DNA of 64,000 bases from NCBI RefSeq assembly GCF_000027125.1, contig NC_017626.1; one strand, given 5' to 3'. Below, in pieces: positions 32,930 to 44,683 of this stretch (the stretch's first letter is position 1; every line of letters begins with the position of its first letter). A program made the translations under genes and the position numbers. This DNA is from Escherichia coli 042 (GTDB taxonomy: Bacteria > Pseudomonadota > Gammaproteobacteria > Enterobacterales > Enterobacteriaceae). A model generated the notes under the pieces. It saw nothing but the letters and a program-made list of their open reading frames with translations, was not told the DNA's origin and did no database searches.

Positions 32930-35821
32930 ATGATTGGTACAACACCTTATCATGCGAAATATTTTGCGCATGAACTTTCCATTCTTCATTCAAACAATGG
33001 GGTGGACCGTCTGTCTCAATCGCTGTTTGATGCAAGCGTAGATCTAAACCCTCATCAAATTGAGGCGGCTCTTTTTGCTATCGAAAATCCGCTAAGCAAA
33101 GGTGTTGTGCTTGCCGATGAAGTTGGTTTGGGTAAAACCATTGAAGCTGGACTAGTGCTTTGCCAGTTGTGGGCTGAAAGAAAACGTAAACTGTTGATCA
33201 TTTGTCCTGCTTCACTGCGTCGCCAATGGGCGAGCGAGTTACAGGAAAAGTTCAATCTACCTTCTCAGGTGTTGGACGCGAAAATGTATAGCCAGCTTCA
33301 AAAAGAAGGGATCCATAATCCCTTAAATAATAAATCGATCACTATCATGTCATACCACTATGCTGCTCGGTTAGAAGAGAAATTGGTGGCTGAAATGTGG
33401 GATCTGGTTGTTATCGACGAAGCCCATAAACTGCGTAATGCTCATCGAGAAAGCAACAAAATGGGGCAAGCGTTAAAGCGTGCGCTTGATGGGCGGAAGA
33501 AATTACTACTGACCGCAACGCCTTTACAGAACTCGTTGATGGAACTGTATGGCATGTCGACGCTTATAGATGAACATACCTTCGGCGAAGTTAAAGCGTT
33601 CAGAAAGCAATATATGCAGGCAGATAGCGATATTGCGGAGTTGAAGGGGCGATTGTCGCGTTTTATCAAACGAACTCTACGCAAGAATGTGCTGGAGTAT
33701 ATCAAGTATACAGAACGTAAAGCGATCACTATTCCTTTCTATCCGAGCGAACAGGAGCAGGATCTTTATGAACGCGTACAAAAATTGCTTGAACGTGAGG
33801 ATAGCTATGCCTTACCAAAACGACACCGGCATCTGACGGGGCTTATACTCAGAAAACTACTTTCCTCAAGTACGAAAGCCGTATTGAATAACTTGCAGAT
33901 CCTTAAGACTCGTTTAGAAAGGTTAAAGCTGGAAGGTATCGTTGAAGATGATATGGACATCATCCAACAGATCATAATGGATGATGATCTTGAAGATGAC
34001 ATCGTTGAAGATGCCGAATCAGTAGCGCCAGATACAGAGTGCAAATCTGTGGATTCAGATGCGCTTCAGGCAGAAATCAATGAGCTGGAATCACTCATTG
34101 TCAAAGCAGAACAGATTGGCACTGATACCAAATCAAAAGAGTTGCTTTCTGGCCTGGAGCAAGGTTTTGCACAGCTTGCCGAAATGGGGGCTGCAAAAAA
34201 AGTCATCATCTTCACGGAGTCGATGCGAACTCAACAGTACCTTGCACATTTTCTGGAAAACAATGGCTACCAGGGAAAAGTAGTAACCTTTAGTGGCACA
34301 AACAATACACCGCAGGCAAACAAGATCTACCAGCAATGGCGCGAGGAATATCAGGGATCTTCTCGTATTACCGGGTCGGCGCAAATTGATAAACGCTCGG
34401 CTTTGATCGACCACTTCAAAGATCATGCTGAAATCATGATAGCTACAGAAGCTGCAGCTGAAGGGGTGAACCTGCAATTTTGTTCGCTACTGATCAATTA
34501 CGATTTCCCCTGGAACCCACAACGCATTGAACAGCGTATTGGACGTTGTCACCGATACGGGCAAAAATTTGATGTGGTTGTTATTAACTTCCTCAATCAG
34601 CGAAACCAGGCCGATCAACGCGTTCTTGAACTCTTAACTGAAAAGTTCAGCCTGTTTGATGGCGTGTTTGGCGCATCGGATAGTGTGCTTGGCAGCATAG
34701 AAAATGGTGTGGATTTTGAAAAAAGGATCCAGTCAATTTATGAGTCATGCCGTACCCCCGAGGAGATAGAGCTGGCTTTTGAAAGGTTGCAGAAAGAGCT
34801 GGAAGATGAAATCAATCTCAAGATGCAGAAGACGCAAGAACAGTTGCTTGAGCATTTTGATGAAGATATTCACGATATCCTTAAAATAAGGCTTGATGAA
34901 GCTCGGGAGCGCCTGGATAAAGTCGGTCGTTGGTTTTGGGCCGTGACCTGTCAGCAGCTCAAACAATATGCTGATTTTGATCATGAGCATCATCGTTTCA
35001 CTTTACGTGAATCAGTCAATGAACTGCCTGTCGGGCAGTACCAGCTGTTGCGCAAAGATGGCAGGCAAAATAGTGCGTTACAAATGCAGGATCACCACAG
35101 TTTTGCATATCGGATCAATCATCCGCTGGGTGAGTACGTCATTGAGGGAGCCAAAGCCCAGGAGACGAAAACAGCTGAAGTCATCTTCGATTACAGTAAC
35201 CACACAACGAAAGTTTCGGTGGCTGAGCAGCTGAAAGGGCAATCAGGATGGTTAACACTAAATTTGCTTACTGTTGATGCGTTTAACAGGCAGCAATTTT
35301 TAGTCTTTACCGCGAAAACTGACAACGGACGTGTGGTAGATGGTGAAGCTTGTAAACGTCTGTTCAACTTGTCTGCAATAACCAACGAAAAGCTGGATAA
35401 TTCGGCAAGTTTAGATGCATTACCTGATGACTTGATCTTACTCAAGAACAGGCAAATTGACGCCAGGCTTGCAGAAGTTTTGGAGCAGAACTATGTCCTT
35501 TTTGAAGCGGAAAGAGATAAGCTGGAAAAATGGGCTGAAGACATGATCTTTGCGGCGGAAGAAGCATTACGCGATACCAAAATGCAAATCAAGTCGTTGA
35601 AGCGAGAAGCCAGGCTGGCGCAATCGATCGAAGAACAAAAGCAAAACCAGGAAAAGCTTAAGCTACTGGAACGGCAGCAGAAGCGTCAACGTATGGAAAT
35701 TTTTGACATTGAAGATGAGATCGCCGACAAGAGGGATGAACTCATCAGTGCCCTTGAAGAGCGGATGAAGCAAAAGACGGATATCACCGAGCTGTTTACC
35801 ATCCGCTGGAAAGTTATTTAA
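32930..35821 (+). CDS. SNF2-family ATPase, RapA/HepA-like, short N-terminus
   Basis: 963 aa. Motif I LADEVGLGKTIEAG, motif II VVIDEAHKLRN, motif III LLLTATPLQN, motif VI QRIGRCHRYGQ; C-terminal coiled-coil-like region. Several blocks resemble RapA; RapA N-terminal domains absent. Confidence 0.85.
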   Translation: MIGTTPYHAKYFAHELSILHSNNGVDRLSQSLFDASVDLNPHQIEAALFAIENPLSKGVVLADEVGLGKTIEAGLVLCQLWAERKRKLLIICPASLRRQWASELQEKFNLPSQVLDAKMYSQLQKEGIHNPLNNKSITIMSYHYAARLEEKLVAEMWDLVVIDEAHKLRNAHRESNKMGQALKRALDGRKKLLLTATPLQNSLMELYGMSTLIDEHTFGEVKAFRKQYMQADSDIAELKGRLSRFIKRTLRKNVLEYIKYTERKAITIPFYPSEQEQDLYERVQKLLEREDSYALPKRHRHLTGLILRKLLSSSTKAVLNNLQILKTRLERLKLEGIVEDDMDIIQQIIMDDDLEDDIVEDAESVAPDTECKSVDSDALQAEINELESLIVKAEQIGTDTKSKELLSGLEQGFAQLAEMGAAKKVIIFTESMRTQQYLAHFLENNGYQGKVVTFSGTNNTPQANKIYQQWREEYQGSSRITGSAQIDKRSALIDHFKDHAEIMIATEAAAEGVNLQFCSLLINYDFPWNPQRIEQRIGRCHRYGQKFDVVVINFLNQRNQADQRVLELLTEKFSLFDGVFGASDSVLGSIENGVDFEKRIQSIYESCRTPEEIELAFERLQKELEDEINLKMQKTQEQLLEHFDEDIHDILKIRLDEARERLDKVGRWFWAVTCQQLKQYADFDHEHHRFTLRESVNELPVGQYQLLRKDGRQNSALQMQDHHSFAYRINHPLGEYVIEGAKAQETKTAEVIFDYSNHTTKVSVAEQLKGQSGWLTLNLLTVDAFNRQQFLVFTAKTDNGRVVDGEACKRLFNLSAITNEKLDNSASLDALPDDLILLKNRQIDARLAEVLEQNYVLFEAERDKLEKWAEDMIFAAEEALRDTKMQIKSLKREARLAQSIEEQKQNQEKLKLLERQQKRQRMEIFDIEDEIADKRDELISALEERMKQKTDITELFTIRWKVI

Positions 35822-35826
35822 TTGAT

Positions 35827-38800
35827 TTGAAAGAGAAAATAATGAGTAAGTACAACGAATTAGTTAAGAAGTTAAAAGAAATTTTTCAGATTGATCGACC
35901 AGAACTGGATTTCGGTATTTATCGTATTTTAAATGCACGTGCTGATGAAATTAACGACTATCTGGATAATAAGCTGAAGGCCAAAATCCAGTCTGCGCTG
36001 GCGGATGCAGGAAATGCCAATAAATCAGAATTAGAACATCAGTTGCAACTGACAATAAAAGCGGCAACTGATGCGGGTGTAGACCCTGCTGATAGCCCAA
36101 AAGTACAGGAGCTTAAAAAGCAACTGGCGGCTATGGCATCCGGAGCAAATGAGCATGAAAATGCAGTATTTTCCCATCTGCTCACTTTCTTTTCGCGTTA
36201 TTATGACAACGGCGATTTTATCAGCAAACGCCGTTATAAAGGTAATACCTACGCCATCCCCTATTCTGGCGAAGAAGTGATGTTGCACTGGGCAAATAAG
36301 GACCAGTACTACATTAAAAGCGGTGAAAACTTCGCTAATTATTCGTTCAAATTAGAAGACGGTCGTAAAGTTAGCTTTAAATTGCTCGCAGCGGACACAG
36401 CAAAAGATAACCGTAAAGATAATGAATTAGATCGCTGCTTTGTACTTATTGAGCCGCATGTTCGTACCAAAATTGATGAAGAAGGCGATGAGTACGAACA
36501 AGAATATAAGCCAGTAGAAGTGGTGAAAACTTCATCTGTGGTTGACGGTAAACTCGTTGAAACAGAAGAGTTAGTTATTCATTTCGAATATAAGGCAATG
36601 AAAAAGGGCACTAAGCAGGATGCTTTAGTGCAGTCCGCTATTTCAAAAATTCTGGCTGATAAAACAGTACAACAGCATTGGGTTGATCTTGCTAAACGTG
36701 CGCCAACCGAAAAAAATCCGTCACGTACAGAGTTGGAGCGTCATTTAACAACATATACCCAACGTAATACGGCTGACTACTTTATTCATAAAGATCTCGG
36801 TGGCTTTTTAACGAACGAACTGGATTTTTATATTAAAAATGAAGTAATGAATCTCGATAATGTGCAAAATGCAGAAGTGTTTGCTAATATTGAGAAACAA
36901 CTGCGCATGATTCAATGTTTGCGTGCTGTTGCGCTGGAACTCATCACTTTTTTGGCACAGATTGAGAATTTCCAAAAGAAACTTTGGACTAAGAAAAAGT
37001 TTGTTGTAGAGACAAACTATATATTTACCGTAGATAAGTTACCAGAGGAATTATATTCAATTGTCATTAAGAATGATGCCCAATGGGAACAATGGAAGCA
37101 ATTAGGTTTCCTCAGCGATTTTTCGGGAGATAGAGAGAAAACTCTGAAAGAAAAACAAGGGTTAATTGTTGATACTTCATTATTTGATTCCAAGTTCAAA
37201 GAGAAATTTATCAACAATATCGCTGATGTTGACACAAATGTTTCCGCTTATTTATATAGTGGAGATAATTATCAAGTGTTAAATCTTATTAAAATAAAAT
37301 ATAATAATAAAGTTGATGGTATATATATAGATCCACCTTATAATACCAATGCGTCTGAGATTTTATACAAAAACGGTTATAAGGATAGCTCATGGTGTTC
37401 TTTAATGAGTTCTCGTTTAGAGATAAGTAAATCCTTATTAAAAGAAAATGCAGCTACTTGTACAACTATTGATGAGTATGAAGTTGCTAATTTGGAATTA
37501 TTGCTAAAAGAAACGTTTACAGGATATCAAATCAGACCTGTTGTTATTGAATATAACCATCGAGGACGAGTTAAAAGTAATTTCGCTATTACCCATGAAT
37601 ATGCTTTATGGACCTTACCAGAAAATAAAGATGTAATATCGAGACAAGTTGAAATATCAGAAGAAATTAGGCGTAACTTGCGTAGAACTGGTTCAGGTTC
37701 TACTCGTGCCGAATCTGAAAGTCAATTTTATGGCATCGAAGTTGACAATAATACCCTCGAGATTGTCAATGTAACCGAAGCTTTACCAAGTTTAGATTCA
37801 GCAATTCCTACGCATCTAAATAAAGATACAACAATGGTATGGCCAGTAGATGACCAAGGGGTTGAGCGGCGCTGGTACTATGGGCGAGATCGTGTTATTC
37901 GCGAAGCTAAAGAAGGTACTGTTTGGGCGAAAAGAATAAAAGGTGAGATACAAATACATTACAGACAAGCAGGAAAACCTAAAATGCGTAAATCTGTATG
38001 GATTGGTCCAAAGCTTGACGCAAGTACCTATGGTTCGGAACTATTAAATAGTTTGTTTAACGTGACTCAGATTAATTTTTCTTTTCCAAAAAGTATTTAT
38101 GCGGTTAAGGAATGTTTAGAGTCGCTTAGTAATTCGAAGTATGCTCATTTCTTAGACTATTTTGCTGGCTCTGGTACTACAGGGCATGCAGTGGTAGATA
38201 TGAATAGGGATGATAATGGTTTTCGAAAATTTAGCTTGGTCGAACAAGGTGAATATTTTTATTCTGTTACCTTGCCTAGAGTAAAAAAAGCTATTTTTAC
38301 AACTGATTGGAAGTATGGAAAAGCACTAAGCTGTAATCCAGTTGAGCAGACATTAATAAAATATATTAAAATTGAGAGTTTTGAGGATACTCTTAACAAT
38401 ATAGCACTGAAACGTACTGAAACAACAAAGGATCTTTTCGACGATCTTAAAGAAATTCGAGAGGATTATGTTCTTAACTATATGCTTGAAACAGAAAGCA
38501 AAGGCTCACTACTCAATACTGATAATTTCAAAAAACCATTTAACTACGAAATGGATGTTACAACGGATTCCGCAGGTGCTACTGAGCGTAAGAACATCGA
38601 TTTAGTTGAAACTTTCAACTATCTCATTGGCTTACATGTGAAATCCATCGAATCCAATATCGAACGTGGCTATGTGCGTGTTGAAGGAACGCTACCAACT
38701 GGCGAGCGTACCCTTATTCTGTGGCGCGATTGCGACAAGATCGGCTATGAAGAATTGAATAAATATGCCAACAGATTCGATTTATATGCAAAAGAAAATA

Positions 38801-38946
38801 CGTTCGACGTTATCTATATCAATGGCGATCATAACTTACCTACCGCCTTTACCGTTGATGAAGAAGACGGCGAGATTGTTCGTAGCCTGAAAATCCGCCA
38901 GATCGAACCTGAATTCTTGAACCTGATGTTTGCGGAGGAGGTTTAA
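35827..38946 (+). CDS. DNA methyltransferase, N6-adenine/N4-cytosine (beta-class order), Type III Mod-like with N-terminal extension
   Basis: 1039 aa. Motif IV DPPY (IYIDPPYNT, about 37330) precedes motif I FxGxG (DYFAGSGTTG, about 38160), with a roughly 290-aa variable region between; about 500 aa of unrecognised N-terminal sequence. 6-nt gap after SNF2 gene. Confidence 0.8.
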   Translation: MKEKIMSKYNELVKKLKEIFQIDRPELDFGIYRILNARADEINDYLDNKLKAKIQSALADAGNANKSELEHQLQLTIKAATDAGVDPADSPKVQELKKQLAAMASGANEHENAVFSHLLTFFSRYYDNGDFISKRRYKGNTYAIPYSGEEVMLHWANKDQYYIKSGENFANYSFKLEDGRKVSFKLLAADTAKDNRKDNELDRCFVLIEPHVRTKIDEEGDEYEQEYKPVEVVKTSSVVDGKLVETEELVIHFEYKAMKKGTKQDALVQSAISKILADKTVQQHWVDLAKRAPTEKNPSRTELERHLTTYTQRNTADYFIHKDLGGFLTNELDFYIKNEVMNLDNVQNAEVFANIEKQLRMIQCLRAVALELITFLAQIENFQKKLWTKKKFVVETNYIFTVDKLPEELYSIVIKNDAQWEQWKQLGFLSDFSGDREKTLKEKQGLIVDTSLFDSKFKEKFINNIADVDTNVSAYLYSGDNYQVLNLIKIKYNNKVDGIYIDPPYNTNASEILYKNGYKDSSWCSLMSSRLEISKSLLKENAATCTTIDEYEVANLELLLKETFTGYQIRPVVIEYNHRGRVKSNFAITHEYALWTLPENKDVISRQVEISEEIRRNLRRTGSGSTRAESESQFYGIEVDNNTLEIVNVTEALPSLDSAIPTHLNKDTTMVWPVDDQGVERRWYYGRDRVIREAKEGTVWAKRIKGEIQIHYRQAGKPKMRKSVWIGPKLDASTYGSELLNSLFNVTQINFSFPKSIYAVKECLESLSNSKYAHFLDYFAGSGTTGHAVVDMNRDDNGFRKFSLVEQGEYFYSVTLPRVKKAIFTTDWKYGKALSCNPVEQTLIKYIKIESFEDTLNNIALKRTETTKDLFDDLKEIREDYVLNYMLETESKGSLLNTDNFKKPFNYEMDVTTDSAGATERKNIDLVETFNYLIGLHVKSIESNIERGYVRVEGTLPTGERTLILWRDCDKIGYEELNKYANRFDLYAKENTFDVIYINGDHNLPTAFTVDEEDGEIVRSLKIRQIEPEFLNLMFAEEV

Positions 38947-38948
38947 GA

Positions 38949-41900
38949 ATGGCTAAAAAACCGACCACCGGTAAAGCAGTTAAAAAAGAGACTAACAGCA
39001 AGCTGAGCTTTCATAAGCAGTTGGTTTTAAACCGCTTTATGTTCCATTTTTTTAAAGATGGCACATTGCAAGGTTTGAAGAATCGGTTAGGCGAGGATCG
39101 CTTTGAAGGCATCCATGAAGATGGCCAAAGCTTATTCTTCCATGAGCTGAGTAACTATTTATTCGAGGTCGATCTTATCGATCTCGATGAACTGCGTCGT
39201 TACGATCTCAATATCGTGCAGCACTGGCAGCAGATAACCGAGCACCGTAATCGTAAAGAAGACACAGTGCTGAACATGAAATATTTTCAGTACTTGTCGC
39301 TTCTGTTTACCGAGATCTACCTGGACTGGTACTTCAACCGTAAACAGCAATTACTCGATGGGCTAAATAACGAGCTGGCAGCATACAATGCTGAAAATGA
39401 TAAAACAGCAAAAGACCGGGCTAATCAGTTCAAATCATACGTTCTGGATGATTTGAATAAACTGGCATACTGGAACGCTACTGGTTCTGGTAAGACACTG
39501 CTATTACATGTCAATATTTTGCAATATTTACATTATTTCCAGAACGGTAATAGCCATCATTACCCGGATAAAATCATCCTGCTTACGCCGGATGAACGCC
39601 TATCGAAGCAACATTTAGATGAACTGGAAAACTCAGGATTTACCCAATACCAGTTATTCGATAAGAGTAAATCCGCGCCATTTAAAGGCACGATTGAAGT
39701 TATTGATATCAATAAACTTGCCGATGAAATGGGTGACAAAACTGTTGCCGTTGAGGCATTTGAAGGCAACAATCTGGTCTTGATTGATGAAGGGCATAAA
39801 GGCACAGGAAGTGCTGCTGGTGCCTGGATGCGCCGTCGTGACAAATTAACGCGTGACGGATTTGCGTTTGAATATTCAGCAACTTTTGGCCAGGCAGTGG
39901 CCGGTGGCAATAATGTTGAGGCAGTTGAAACAGAAATTCAGAAGAAAAAAGCAAAGCTGCTTTTTGAAACAACTGCCTTAGGTAAACTGAGCGAAGAACA
40001 GTTAGCGCAAATAGCATTAACCAGCGAAGAACAACGTGATGCGCGTATTCAGGCGACACGAGAAGTCTATGGGAAATCGATTCTGTTCGATTACTCCTAT
40101 AAATTCTTCTATGAGGATGGTTATGGTAAAGAATCACTGATTCTTAACCTTAATCCTGAAGAGGATAAAAAAGATGAGCGTCGGTATGAGTATTTTACCG
40201 CGTGTTTGCTCAGCTTTTATCAGCAACAATATTTATTCAATAAGAATAAAGAAAAATTAAATGAATTTAATATCGAAAAACCGCTATGGGTTTTTGTCGG
40301 TAACACCGTAAGTGGTGAAGATTCAGACATTCACGCAGTACTGCGTTTTTTAGCATGGTTTTTAAATCATGAATCGCAGGCAAAATCGTGGATTAAAGAT
40401 CTCATTGAAAATAAAGCGCGAATTCTTGATACCAAAGAGCGTAACATTTTTGAAAATCGCTTTACCGCACTAATGAACGGCCCGGAAGATATCTACGCAG
40501 ATATTCTTTCTCGTTTGTTTAACACCACTCACTCAGGTCAGAGACTGCGAGTTCTGAATTTAATAGGCAGTAAAGGTGAACTGGCATTACAGGTTGGTGA
40601 GGCCGAACCGTTTGGTCTTATCAATATTGGTGATGCACCGTCTCTTTACAAAATGTGTGAAGAGGATACGACATTTGATTATCAGAGAGATGATTTTGCG
40701 AAGTCACTCTTTCATACGTTAAATGACAAAGACTCGCAACTACATATTTTGATCGGCTCGCGAAAATTTACTGAAGGCTGGAGCAGTTGGCGCGTCTCAA
40801 CGATGGGATTGCTCAATATGGGCCGTGGAGAAGGTTCACAGATCATTCAGTTATTTGGTCGTGGCGTTCGCCTTAAAGGTCGCAATTATTCTTTGAAACG
40901 CAGTACACCCGGTGAGCGTCCGAAAGGGTTGCATCTGGAAAAATTAGAGACACTGAATGTATTCGGTGTACGTGCCGATTACATGGCAACCTTTAAACAA
41001 TACCTGGAAGATGAAGGGATTACGCCAAGTGACGAGATCCTTGAGCTGAATTTTGAAACTCGGCCAAATATGCCAGCAACCAGGCTTAAAACACTTAAGC
41101 TTAAAGATGGTTATAAAGATAATCAAAGACTCGGCTTTAAACGTGTCTATTTTCCCGAATTGTATGAAGTTCCTGCTGATTTTCAGGGGAAAATTAAGCA
41201 GCCGCATATTAAGCTGGACCTATACCCGAAACTTGAGTCGATTGATACCAGCAGAAAAGGGGACAATACTCCGGTTAACGTGCGTAATGAAGCGAAGTTA
41301 GATTATAAAATCATTAGTGCGTTTGATTTTGATCGGCTTTATCTCGCCATTCAGAATTATAAACTACAACGCGGCTGGTCAAATTTACGTGTGGATAAAC
41401 AACGTTTGATCGACTTTTGTACCGGTAAGACAAAGATCGGAAATAGTTGGTATACCCTTTTGATTCCAGCTTCAGAGCTTGAGATTAAGCAATATGCAGA
41501 TATTGCTAAGCAGGAAGATATTATGCTTCGTCTGCTGACTGATTATACTGATCGCTTTTACAACACATTGAAAAATGCTTATGAAGGTCAGTTTTATGAA
41601 GTCACGCAGGTGAAAGAAGATGATCCTGGTATGATCAAAATGTACCATTTCGAGATCGAAGAAACTGATGATGGGTTGGCATATGCCAGTCGGCTGGAAC
41701 AATTACAACAATTGGTCATCGACGGCGAAATCGGTAAAGCAAAATCCTGGAGTGCATCCGGGATGGTTGCTATTACCTTTGATAAACATCTCTATTATCC
41801 ACTTCTTTCGATTGAAAAAAATGCCAACATACCGCTAAAAATGCGACCGGCAGCACTGGGTGCATCAAGTGAGATTACTTTTGTCCATGATCTTCAGTCT

Positions 41901-42329
41901 TTTGTTGATTCGACAAAAGGGCAGAAAATTATTGGTGATAAAAGTTTATATCTGCTAAGAAATGCGGATTCTAAAAATAGAGGCCTGGGCTTTGCTACTG
42001 CGGGTAATTTTTATCCGGATTTCTTATTGTGGTTAGTCGATGATAAAAGTGGTAAACAATGGTTAAGTCTTATTGATCCAAAAGGCATCCGCAATCTTAA
42101 TCTTGATGATCCAAAGTTCGGATTATATAAAGAAATCAAGAATCTTGAACATAAATTATCGGATGATAACTTATCATTAAGTGCATTTATTGTTTCTGAA
42201 ACTTGTTATGTTGACTTAGTAAACGTACCTGATTCAAAAGAGAATCTGGAAGCCAGAAATGTGCTTTTTATTGAGGATACTGGCTCATTGTATCTGGAGA
42301 AATTATTCAGTAAGATGGTTAGCGAGTAA
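38949..42329 (+). CDS. SF2 helicase with C-terminal PD-(D/E)xK-like motif, Type III Res-like
   Basis: 1126 aa. Walker A NATGSGKT, DExH LIDEGHKG, SAT, QLFGRGVRLKG; C-terminal YPDFLLWLVDDKSGKQWLSLIDPKG. Start 2 nt after methyltransferase stop. Confidence 0.8.
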   Translation: MAKKPTTGKAVKKETNSKLSFHKQLVLNRFMFHFFKDGTLQGLKNRLGEDRFEGIHEDGQSLFFHELSNYLFEVDLIDLDELRRYDLNIVQHWQQITEHRNRKEDTVLNMKYFQYLSLLFTEIYLDWYFNRKQQLLDGLNNELAAYNAENDKTAKDRANQFKSYVLDDLNKLAYWNATGSGKTLLLHVNILQYLHYFQNGNSHHYPDKIILLTPDERLSKQHLDELENSGFTQYQLFDKSKSAPFKGTIEVIDINKLADEMGDKTVAVEAFEGNNLVLIDEGHKGTGSAAGAWMRRRDKLTRDGFAFEYSATFGQAVAGGNNVEAVETEIQKKKAKLLFETTALGKLSEEQLAQIALTSEEQRDARIQATREVYGKSILFDYSYKFFYEDGYGKESLILNLNPEEDKKDERRYEYFTACLLSFYQQQYLFNKNKEKLNEFNIEKPLWVFVGNTVSGEDSDIHAVLRFLAWFLNHESQAKSWIKDLIENKARILDTKERNIFENRFTALMNGPEDIYADILSRLFNTTHSGQRLRVLNLIGSKGELALQVGEAEPFGLINIGDAPSLYKMCEEDTTFDYQRDDFAKSLFHTLNDKDSQLHILIGSRKFTEGWSSWRVSTMGLLNMGRGEGSQIIQLFGRGVRLKGRNYSLKRSTPGERPKGLHLEKLETLNVFGVRADYMATFKQYLEDEGITPSDEILELNFETRPNMPATRLKTLKLKDGYKDNQRLGFKRVYFPELYEVPADFQGKIKQPHIKLDLYPKLESIDTSRKGDNTPVNVRNEAKLDYKIISAFDFDRLYLAIQNYKLQRGWSNLRVDKQRLIDFCTGKTKIGNSWYTLLIPASELEIKQYADIAKQEDIMLRLLTDYTDRFYNTLKNAYEGQFYEVTQVKEDDPGMIKMYHFEIEETDDGLAYASRLEQLQQLVIDGEIGKAKSWSASGMVAITFDKHLYYPLLSIEKNANIPLKMRPAALGASSEITFVHDLQSFVDSTKGQKIIGDKSLYLLRNADSKNRGLGFATAGNFYPDFLLWLVDDKSGKQWLSLIDPKGIRNLNLDDPKFGLYKEIKNLEHKLSDDNLSLSAFIVSETCYVDLVNVPDSKENLEARNVLFIEDTGSLYLEKLFSKMVSE

Positions 42330-42341
42330 ATAAATATGATT

Positions 42342-42374
42342 CTGCTCCATATCTCTGTGAGATATGGAGCAGAT
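42342..42374. terminator. hairpin between convergent genes (candidate bidirectional terminator)
   Basis: Inverted repeat CTGCTCCATATCTC / GAGATATGGAGCAG at 42342-42374, between stop of 38949..42329 (+) and stop of 42376..42678 (-). Confidence 0.55.
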
Positions 42375-42375
42375 A

Positions 42376-42678
42376 TTATCGCCAATGTGCAGGAATAATT
42401 AAGTCAAACGATTTTGCTGCATATTCAAGCATTTTTATTATTTCCCGGTGTCGTTCCTGGTCGAAAGACTGTCCATTTTTTCTACACTCTATAATCCCTT
42501 GTAATTCTTTTAGGTTAAACATATCAAGAAGATATAAATTTTTCCAGGTTGGTTGCCCGAAGAGGTTATAGACTGTTTCCGTAGCATCTCGTTCACTTGC
42601 TAATCTTTTCTCTCCTTCTATTCTTTCAAAAAATATTTCAGCTGTTTCTTTATCATCATAAGTATTTAATAATTCCAT
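42376..42678 (-). CDS. hypothetical protein (100 aa)
   Basis: AT-rich ORF convergent with the helicase gene; no family recognised. Confidence 0.4.
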   Translation of the reverse strand: MELLNTYDDKETAEIFFERIEGEKRLASERDATETVYNLFGQPTWKNLYLLDMFNLKELQGIIECRKNGQSFDQERHREIIKMLEYAAKSFDLIIPAHWR

Positions 42679-42990
42679 TATGATTTTCCTGATTAATGAA
42701 TTGATATCACGATAATTATATCATGAATAGATGTAAATTTACTATGTATATAAATTAATGTACAGTTCAACATGCTAATTATTTTTTAATTTGTAATGTC
42801 GATTGGTTAATAATTGGATTCTCTTATAATGAATATATATTTACTCTGACTAGAATATTTGTAAACGTGTTTTATATTGAGATTTTAAAATTGATTTATG
42901 GCTATGTACTCATAAATAATACTTTCGGTGTCAGAAAATACTTTATCTATTACATTTAAAATTCTAGGTGAAAGATATATAATGGTTACC

Positions 42991-43484
42991 TCACCCCCTA
43001 AAAAACTCTTTCCGATACCACTCTACAACCCCCTCAAAAGGGTAATTTTTACGCACCTGTGGCAACGCAATAATTTTTCCGTCAAAATCCCAGAATGACC
43101 TCTCAATGATCTCTCCGCCGTTTACCGCATCCAATACCAGTACCCGCATATTTTCATCCAGGCCAATCGTTCCTTTATCAAAGGCTTTATGATGTATCGC
43201 GCAAAGCGCCAGGCCATTGGGAATTTCACAAGGGCCACCATGTTGTTTCCATTTTATATGTGTCGCTTCCAGTGAGACGGTGGAGTTGCCGTAACAAATA
43301 TTAAAGCTACATATTGCGCACTGGTAGTTATAAGCGCGTAATACATGTTTGCGAAATAATGGGTCACGCTGCTTACGGATTTGCTGGAGAGCAAAAAAAG
43401 GCTCGTCAGCGATTTACTGGAAGCCATTGATATCCCTGGCAGTGAAATAATTGCGATCATGCTCGCAAATTTTCTGCGGTTCAA
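42991..43484 (-). pseudogene. HNH-nuclease-like gene, frameshifted
   Basis: Minus-strand frame ending at 42991 reads ...YNYQCAICSFNICYGNSTVSLEATHIKWKQHGGPCEIPNGLALCAIHHKAFDKGTIGL... but has no start; the ATG at 43484 is in another frame. Frames meet near the A7 run at about 43391-43399. Confidence 0.5.
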
Positions 43485-43638
43485 GCCTGCAAGCGAAGAT
43501 ATATTACCTTGATCTCATATGTTTTTTTACTTCCTGTGTGCCCTAATTGCCATGCGATGTTGCACCGACGCAAACCACCGTTTACGCCGGAGGAGTTAAA
43601 AGCGCTGATGGATGCGAATAAATCAAATTAATGAACGC

Positions 43639-44619
43639 TCACCTTTCGCGCCAAAACTGCAAAATTGCTTCTACAAACCTGTCAGAAATAATCCCTCGAC
43701 GGGCTGCCGCGCTGAAATGACTGCTTCGCAGTGCCGTCGTCCAGTTCTCCGGTGACCGGTACGCTGAACCGTAATATCCCGTGCTTAAATCGTCCGGATC
43801 TTCATCAGGCGCGTTCGTCAGTCCTCTTGCACCTTGTTGCTGGAAGTCGACGAAAATAATATTGGCTAGAACATTATTTTGATAATTGCCATAAATAGCT
43901 TCATACGCATGAGGGAAATTTTCTTTCCAGTACCAGGTGGTATCGCCGCAAAACCACGGCGCGTCAGTAATTTTATTAAGCTGAGAATGGTATTGTTTTA
44001 GATCCCTACGAAAGGCGTCAACCATATGATTAAAGTGTTGAGGGTGTGACGCGTAGTCACTGGTCATTAAGTCAAATTCGCCTTGCATCCAGCATACGCC
44101 GAGGAATTTGTTCTGCGGATTTTTTGCCAGTGCGGCTCGCGTTCTGCTGACTAAATCCTGGTATAGCGGAGTATCCGTTCCCCAACGACAAGCATCATGG
44201 CTGGCTCCGTGCCGTTCTGAATATGTCCCTTCGCTGCCCGCGGTAAAAGCCGATCCGCCACGGCAACACGGAACGATGAGAACCCCTGCATTATCAGGAA
44301 TAAAGGGCAGTAATTTCCGTGCTATATGTAGTGCCTGGCCAACGGTGCCGTACTGTGTTTGATGATTCGTTGCCAGAGGATGGTGATAACCCTGCATATC
44401 CTGAACATCGTGTGGGCAGTGAGTCAGTGGAATAATGTCGTTAAAGTGACATGACGGGCCTCCGGGATGTGTATGCGCAAATCTCGCTAATTGTTTAATT
44501 CTGGGATGAGGCGCATCTTCCTTGTCCGGTAATGGTAGTCCTTCGCCATACGCCATGGCATTAGACTGACCAGCAACGGTAAGAACATAGTAATAATCGG
44601 GCGATATTATTGCGTTCAT
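43639..44619 (-). CDS. nanS: N-acetyl-9-O-acetylneuraminate esterase NanS
   Basis: MNAIISPDYYYVLTVAGQSNAMAYGEGLPLP..., recalled as K-12 NanS (YjhS). Confidence 0.85.
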   Translation of the reverse strand: MNAIISPDYYYVLTVAGQSNAMAYGEGLPLPDKEDAPHPRIKQLARFAHTHPGGPSCHFNDIIPLTHCPHDVQDMQGYHHPLATNHQTQYGTVGQALHIARKLLPFIPDNAGVLIVPCCRGGSAFTAGSEGTYSERHGASHDACRWGTDTPLYQDLVSRTRAALAKNPQNKFLGVCWMQGEFDLMTSDYASHPQHFNHMVDAFRRDLKQYHSQLNKITDAPWFCGDTTWYWKENFPHAYEAIYGNYQNNVLANIIFVDFQQQGARGLTNAPDEDPDDLSTGYYGSAYRSPENWTTALRSSHFSAAARRGIISDRFVEAILQFWRER

Positions 44620-44683
44620 ATAATTTTCGCGTAATACAAATGACAAATTGATAGCAAGGCCCCTTTACCGGGGCCCTGAAGTG

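Follow-up and report, generated by a model that had tools for sequence, protein, structure and literature searches.

The window, a stretch of 64,000 nucleotides of the Escherichia coli 042 chromosome (contig NC_017626.1), contains at positions 42991-43484 a minus-strand feature that was originally predicted to be an HNH nuclease-like gene inactivated by a frameshift near an A7 tract. A stop-free HNH-type frame extends on this strand from approximately 43415 to a TGA codon at 42991-42993 and translates as IADEPFFALQQIRKQRDPLFRKHVLRAYNYQCAICSFNICYGNSTVSLEATHIKWKQHGGPCEIPNGLALCAIHHKAFDKG...FFRG. This frame is real and, as predicted, lacks a start: it matches both Pfam HNH_2 (PF13391, E-value 1.7e-8) and the NCBIfam profile NF045808, and the first ATG, GTG, or TTG codon in it is the ATG at 43149, past the HNH motif. 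The motifs CAIC, EATHI, and NGLALCAIHHKAFD of an HNH domain (CxxC, H...N...H) are present, and the catalytic signature, formed by CxxC, E-A-x-H-I, N-G-L, and H-H-K-A-F-D, is still intact. The match to NF045808, which has a cut-off of 180 bits, reaches 187.6 bits and covers profile positions 149-284 only, and window segment 42991-43413 (minus strand) corresponds to the C-terminal 138-140 residues of a protein named 'phosphorothioated DNA-binding restriction endonuclease'. The remnant HNH half is 83-89% identical to full proteins of the type that combines a sulfur-binding domain (SBD) with an HNH domain. In strain FORC_031, which is 99.9% identical to the window over 1,371 nt, RefSeq annotates the equivalent of 42991-43413 as a pseudogene ('incomplete; missing N-terminus').

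On one side of this locus the E. coli chromosome carries nanS (43639-44646), nanM, and nanC, and on the other side a variable island with IS elements, a CbtA/YeeU toxin-antitoxin pair, Ag43, and the fec genes. RefSeq calls nanS a partial pseudogene in several genomes; the nanS of the window (minus strand) is an uninterrupted 335-codon ORF, and the call looks like an annotation inconsistency. Opposite the 3' end of nanS, RefSeq also places a hypothetical ORF of 29-30 codons on the plus strand (43631-43720), which is named 'YthB' in K-12. As had been noted, the HNH-type gene is convergent with an operon: it lies on the strand opposite to a plus-strand operon that ends at 42329, with a minus-strand ORF between the two (Table 1). 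The 3 operon proteins, a helicase, a methyltransferase, and a restriction subunit, have lengths of 963, 1039, and 1126 aa, respectively, and from its PADLOC matches the operon is assigned to the type III-like restriction-modification (R-M) systems, with an added SNF2 helicase. The intervening 100-codon ORF has no Pfam, NCBIfam, or PADLOC match, and it travels with the type III-like system in FORC_031, 3CM, and F9792. A strong hairpin with a 15-bp stem (TCTGCTCCATATCTC ACA GAGATATGGAGCAGA) is located at 42341-42373, between the stop codons at 42329 (plus strand) and 42376 (minus strand), and probably serves the convergent genes as a terminator in both directions. A promoter scan of the remnant region returned counts no higher than those of shuffled sequences, and terminator predictions were not informative for the remnant.

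Table 1. Coordinates of the features at the remnant locus and in its surroundings (positions in the window).
Feature	Position	Strand	Evidence or remark
Neighbouring operon of three genes: SNF2/DrmD-like helicase, type III-like methyltransferase, type III-like restriction subunit	32930..42329	+	PADLOC DrmD, MTase_III, REase_III
100-codon hypothetical ORF (WP_000421876) between remnant and operon	42376..42678	-	
3' remnant of the SBD-HNH gene, codons 153-290 (linker end and HNH), with stop TGA 42991-42993	42991..43407	-	Gap-free alignment to intact genes (L003, L005); Pfam; NF045808
Frame opened by the native ATG, 57 codons (MASSKSLTSLFLLSS...) up to TAA 43254-43256; out of frame with the HNH domain, native residues limited to MASSKSL	43254..43427	-	
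T7 run (A7 on the plus strand), 9 nt 3' of the junction, CT[T TTT TTG] in the ATG frame	43393..43399	-	Sequence, alignment
Deletion junction, single copy of the 8-bp repeat AAATCGCT	43408..43415	-	BLAST segment overlap; common to 367 genomes, 8 carriers, and 5 metagenome contigs
Native start, ATG 43425-43427 followed by GCT TCC AGT, identical to intact alleles	43416..43427	-	Alignment
5' leader and divergent intergenic stretch kept from the intact locus, 97% identity with strains that have intact alleles; holds TTG 43484 and a small hairpin (43451-43468)	43428..43525	.	
Second, unrelated remnant: last 34 codons (LLPVCPNCHAMLHRRKPPFTPEELKALMDANKSN) of a 216-aa HNH endonuclease	43527..43631	+	Intact in strain E275a (WP_001037966)

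Intact alleles of the gene

Intact genes are present in strains 3CM, F9792, and GF124.3 (WP_021557484, WP_000168560, and WP_000168555). The intact gene is 873 bp long and encodes a protein of 290 aa with an N-terminal SBD, a C-terminal HNH nuclease domain, and a computed mass of 33.2 kDa. Residues 5-142 of this protein align to the SBD of ScoMcrA (PDB 5zmo, E-value 6.5e-8; also 5zmn and 5zmm), its C-terminal part aligns to the HNH enzyme TagI, and NF045808 matches it at positions 2-284 with 438.6 bits. The intact alleles occupy the same place as the remnant, flanked by nanS on one side and by a variable defence island on the other. In 3CM and F9792 the flanks are the same as in the window; in GF124.3 an McrBC island is found instead. 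The loci are orthologous because flanks are shared and the alignment of the window against strain 3CM is collinear and free of gaps except for a single deletion.

A 436-bp deletion between short direct repeats

The alignment with the intact gene of 3CM consists of 2 gap-free blocks, 43700-43408 (293 nt, 96.9% identity) and 43415-42330 (1086 nt, 93.0% identity), which overlap on the 8 nt AAATCGCT, and the 436 bp that lie between them in the intact gene are absent from the window. Intact alleles contain 2 copies of this repeat, one at nt 13-20 of the gene and the other, in the form AAAT(C/T)GCT, at nt 449-456. The start of the intact gene reads ATGGCTTCCAGTAAATCGCT|ACAGCAG... and the region around nt 449-456 reads ...GAAGAAAT(C/T)GCT|GACGAGCTGG..., and the junction in the window reads ATGGCTTCCAGTAAATCGCT|GACGAGCC.... 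Comparison with intact homologues, which had been proposed as the way to locate the lesion, thus shows a 436-bp deletion with its junction at 43408-43415, and it is at this junction, and not at the homopolymer at approximately 43391-43399 as originally thought, that the 2 frames meet. Both frames belong to a single gene, as shown by the alignment to intact alleles, and not to unrelated genes.

The deletion removes codons ~7-152 and with them the whole SBD (approximately residues 5-142), which is therefore missing from the window copy. In addition, because 436 = 3x145+1, the native ATG no longer opens the frame of the HNH domain. The window copy keeps this ATG (43427) and the first 20 nt of the gene, and no continuous ORF of approximately 290 codons starts from it, owing to the deletion and the frame shift; the only product that can be read from it is a 57-residue nonsense peptide, MASSKSLTSLFLLSSKSVSSVTHYFANMYYALITTSAQYVALIFVTATPPSHWKRHI. 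The ATG that had been placed at 43484, in a frame different from that of the HNH domain, proved to be a TTG. This upstream start is indeed in a different frame, but all it opens is a mechanical ORF across the 5' leader, and the gene's true start is the same ATG that intact alleles use (Table 1).

The 436-bp gap is unlikely to be an assembly artefact because it is present in 367 independent complete genomes. These were found in a population survey of 5,426 complete E. coli genomes, in which a 99-nt query spanning the junction gave a full-length match in 367. The mechanism is thereby corrected from homopolymer slippage to a microhomology-mediated deletion of 436 bp, which may have arisen by replication slippage or by illegitimate recombination between the short direct repeats. 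Since the lesion is this deletion, resequencing of the A-tract is uninformative for restoring the full-length gene. The loss may have been tolerated because an enzyme that restricts nothing but modified DNA would be dispensable. A dnd or ssp phosphorothioation system, which was considered as a cause of the loss, was not found in the ~50 kb of annotated context. From these comparisons, we consider that the feature at 42991-43484 is most probably the non-functional remains of an E. coli gene for a phosphorothioate-dependent restriction endonuclease (SBD and HNH), with a probability of approximately 0.93. The part of the original prediction that spoke of a decayed gene was thus borne out, the cause of the inactivation being the deletion between 8-bp direct repeats, which removed the SBD and left the rest out of frame, and not a frameshift near the A7 run.

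The T7 run adjoining the junction

The A7 run (T7 on the coding strand) exists where it had been seen, but it is not the lesion. It is as long as its counterpart in intact alleles, CTGGGTTTTGA, and the segment that contains it, GAGCCTTTTTTTGCTCTCC, is collinear with GAGCTGGGTTTTGATCTCC of intact alleles, with 5 substitutions and no indel. Therefore, the homopolymer is not where the frame was lost, and on this alignment we regard the run as a bystander that adjoins the junction. The frames do change within about 10-20 nt of the run, as would be expected if a single-nucleotide indel within the A7 had inactivated an otherwise complete HNH gene. This simple reading is refuted by the alignment to intact alleles, in which the tract segment is collinear without any indel and the 436 bp, with the whole N-terminal domain, are missing; moreover, a corrected tract would produce a 145-aa fragment and not the 290-aa enzyme. 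We therefore consider it next to impossible.

The 5 clustered substitutions that create the T7 run have been seen only together with the deletion. The run of the remnant (CCTTTTTTTGCTC, minus strand, 43388-43400) and a T7 run on the plus strand (TGTTTTTTTACTT, 43518-43531) form an imperfect inverted repeat whose arms are ~120 nt apart, and the plus-strand arm reads GTTTTTTTGCTGCC in other strains. Quasi-palindrome templated mutation from one arm could be the source of the 5 substitutions in the remnant.

A different role for the run would be that of a phase-variable or recoding site: slippage of the DNA to T8, slippage during transcription, or a -1 shift of ribosomes on U UUU UUG would join the native ATG to the HNH frame and yield a 145-aa SBD-less nuclease at a low or switchable level. 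Since the frame is off by +1 nt after the deletion, either an additional T or a -1 shift would put it right, and the run is part of a slippery heptamer in the X XXY YYZ phase, from which a -1 shift out of the ATG frame enters the HNH frame. The catalytic residues of the HNH domain are kept, the tract results from clustered substitutions found only with the deletion, and SprMcrA-S, which has a naturally truncated SBD, is an active non-specific nickase (PMC7461809). By this account, the T7 substitutions would be a secondary adaptation that allows a low-level -1 shift and thereby the synthesis, from the old promoter and start codon, of an HNH nickase of 145 aa without an SBD, and a dead modification-dependent restriction gene would have been partly rescued as a low-level, modification-independent nuclease. 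However, the length of the tract does not vary among strains. An 86-nt query containing the T7 segment matched in 370 genomes, in 305/370 exactly, and the T8 and T6 versions of the same query each gave 0 exact matches among the 5,426 genomes. The T7 run was also invariant, with the same junction, in 8/8 carriers read directly and in the 5/5 contigs retrieved by a metagenome scan for the T7 motif. Elements that stimulate programmed -1 frameshifting are lacking as well: the 93 nt downstream of the tract fold at -17.2 kcal/mol, with a z-score of -0.84 relative to shuffled sequences, and are thus not unusually structured, and no Shine-Dalgarno-like (AGGAGG-like) sequence is present 10-14 nt upstream of the tract. 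Furthermore, the A13/FDAARGOS_1254 group has lost 2 further single nucleotides, the first from the leader and the second from immediately ahead of the tract, which breaks the phase relation between the ATG and the HNH frame.

Selection on the HNH frame

No in-frame stop codon was found within the HNH frame in any carrier examined. Among the 8 carriers, this frame has accumulated 15 nonsynonymous and 6 synonymous changes (dN/dS ~0.68), a ratio that does not differ from the neutral expectation (p = 0.43), whereas the HNH half of 2 intact alleles differs by 4 nonsynonymous and 11 synonymous changes (dN/dS 0.09). The 2 ratios, 15:6 and 4:11, differ from each other (Fisher p = 0.017), and the remnant looks as if it has drifted roughly neutrally since the deletion. 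The frame downstream of the heptamer is thus not under the purifying selection, nor its phase as conserved, as in programmed -1 sites. Together with the constant tract length and the unremarkable downstream structure, this drift argues against the slippage-prone switch that had been offered as the alternative to a decayed gene: we judge such a switch very unlikely, and an adaptive origin of the T7 substitutions equally hard to credit.

The same drift bears on a further possibility, namely that the frame is a stand-alone HNH gene translated from a non-canonical ATC start at 43413-43415. A cluster of 82 database sequences, 141-aa 'HNH endonuclease' entries (P0001), begins with MADEPFFALQQ..., that is, at that ATC. 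This codon is part of the deletion junction and is directly preceded by a TAA in the same frame, the one sequence that resembles a Shine-Dalgarno element (AGGGA) belongs to the ATG at 43427 in the other frame, and the current RefSeq annotation replaces the protein call by a pseudogene. As the frame also drifts neutrally, we consider an ATC-initiated gene extremely unlikely. The P0001 cluster, which stems from older annotations, is probably an annotation artefact that persists in protein databases.

The remnant differs from intact alleles at 43-48 of 417 nt, with a dS of about 0.27, compared with a within-carrier dS of about 0.05. We rejected the idea that all of the ~10% divergence of the remnant is decay that followed the deletion, because a dS of ~0.27 is far above the within-carrier value. 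This dS is too high for post-deletion drift and therefore indicates that the deletion hit an allele that was already divergent. In agreement with this, a database fragment (P0002) shows part of the divergence of the remnant in a gene that still has upstream sequence. No intact ancestor of the divergent T7-type allele was found in an exact-pattern scan of one genome per species, nor in the metagenome scan, in which all 5 loci found are deleted. A protein search with the 140-aa frame returned only fragments of <250 aa and none of the 290-aa proteins.

Distribution of the deletion allele

With a reconstructed full-length gene as query, at least 80% was covered in 1,706 of the surveyed genomes, and the deletion allele appeared as 2 pieces; only about 31% of the complete E. 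coli genomes thus have the EcoWI-like gene at full length. By the junction-spanning query, 367 of about 370 T7-type alleles carry the deletion. The 8 carriers read directly fall into 3 sublineages with different DNA 3' of the stop codon, one formed by the window, GF130, and A3, another by clone D i14, KE48, and GIMC1410, and a third by A13 and FDAARGOS_1254. The deletion allele is therefore old and occurs in at least 3 diverged sublineages with different downstream islands. Its junction, AAATCGCT between ATGGCTTCCAGT and GACGAGCC, can conveniently serve as a lineage marker for about 7% of E. coli genomes.

The edge of a defence island and a second nuclease remnant

Homology between strains ends within about 10 nt past the stop codon of the remnant (window 42985-42995; loci L002, L007, and L008). 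The cargo beyond this point is the SNF2 and type III-like R-M operon in the window, McrBC in GF124.3, another type III R-M system in A13, and an IS630-family element (ISEc40) with fragments in clone D i14. Because the cargo differs right after the stop codon, the hotspot for defence-island insertion beside nanS has its border at the 3' end of the gene.

Divergently upstream of the main remnant lies what is left of a second nuclease gene (Table 1), which was likewise shortened by a deletion between repeats: the 583 bp at its start, bounded by copies of a 12-bp repeat (TTTGCTGCCTGT in E275a), are gone, and a single copy, TTTACTTCCTGT, is present at 43526-43537 in the window. In strain E275a the situation is reversed: the 216-aa HNH gene is intact, and the gene for the phosphorothioate-dependent enzyme is reduced to 150 bp. 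Hence, 2 adjacent nuclease genes have both been removed by repeat-mediated deletions.

Discussion

The remnant is an ordinary, old pseudogene of a known enzyme family and is already annotated as such. It adds another case of a modification-dependent restriction gene that has decayed at the border of a defence-island hotspot and matters little in itself, although the state of the allele is relevant to predicting whether a strain accepts phosphorothioate-modified (dnd+) DNA. In its SBD-HNH architecture the intact protein belongs with EcoWI and SprMcrA, enzymes that cut near phosphorothioate sites of the sequence GpsAAC/GpsTTC and restrict dnd+ plasmids (Front Microbiol 2020, PMC7461809; PLoS Genet 2022, PMC9521924). 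The intact alleles resemble EcoWI, which has a predicted mass of 33.4 kDa (PMC7461809), in being SBD-HNH proteins of 290 aa and 33.2 kDa with a full-length match to NF045808 (438.6 bits), a comparison made by size and architecture. Neither PMC7461809 nor its supplement gives a sequence or accession for EcoWI, and the intact allele is either EcoWI or merely a close homologue of it. The window copy differs from EcoWI in that it is without an SBD and out of frame, and for this reason it is predicted to be unable to recognise GpsAAC/GpsTTC or to restrict dnd+ DNA. Judging from the sequence, we would expect the window allele to be negative for phosphorothioate-stimulated cleavage and for restriction of dnd+ plasmids.

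ScoMcrA, like SprMcrA a type IV phosphorothioate-dependent HNH endonuclease of Streptomyces, provides the structural counterpart of the N-terminal domain of the intact allele, which aligns to its SBD; unlike ScoMcrA, the E. coli gene is without an SRA domain. SprMcrA-S, a natural SBD-truncated form in which an in-frame truncation of 87 aa leaves an active non-specific nickase (PMC7461809), resembles the window allele in that both are natural N-terminal truncations of SBD-HNH enzymes. However, the truncation of SprMcrA-S is in-frame, whereas the window allele has lost the entire SBD, is frameshifted, and has no start codon for its HNH frame. An SBD-less HNH nuclease would, if anything, act as a non-specific nickase. 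With contingency loci and programmed -1 sites such as dnaX (A AAA AAG), the remnant shares a 7-nt homopolymer that is in phase, so that a -1 shift links the 2 frames; it differs from them in that its tract is without length polymorphism, without a stimulatory structure, and without purifying selection downstream. A parallel is found in K-12, where the same gene has been degraded independently. There, a 206-bp 5' fragment, annotated as a 'restriction endonuclease' pseudogene, lies between yjhR and ythB/nanS, in the same position adjoining nanS at the edge of the fec-to-nan variable island. The K-12 fragment keeps part of the SBD end and has lost the HNH end, whereas in the window the reverse has occurred.
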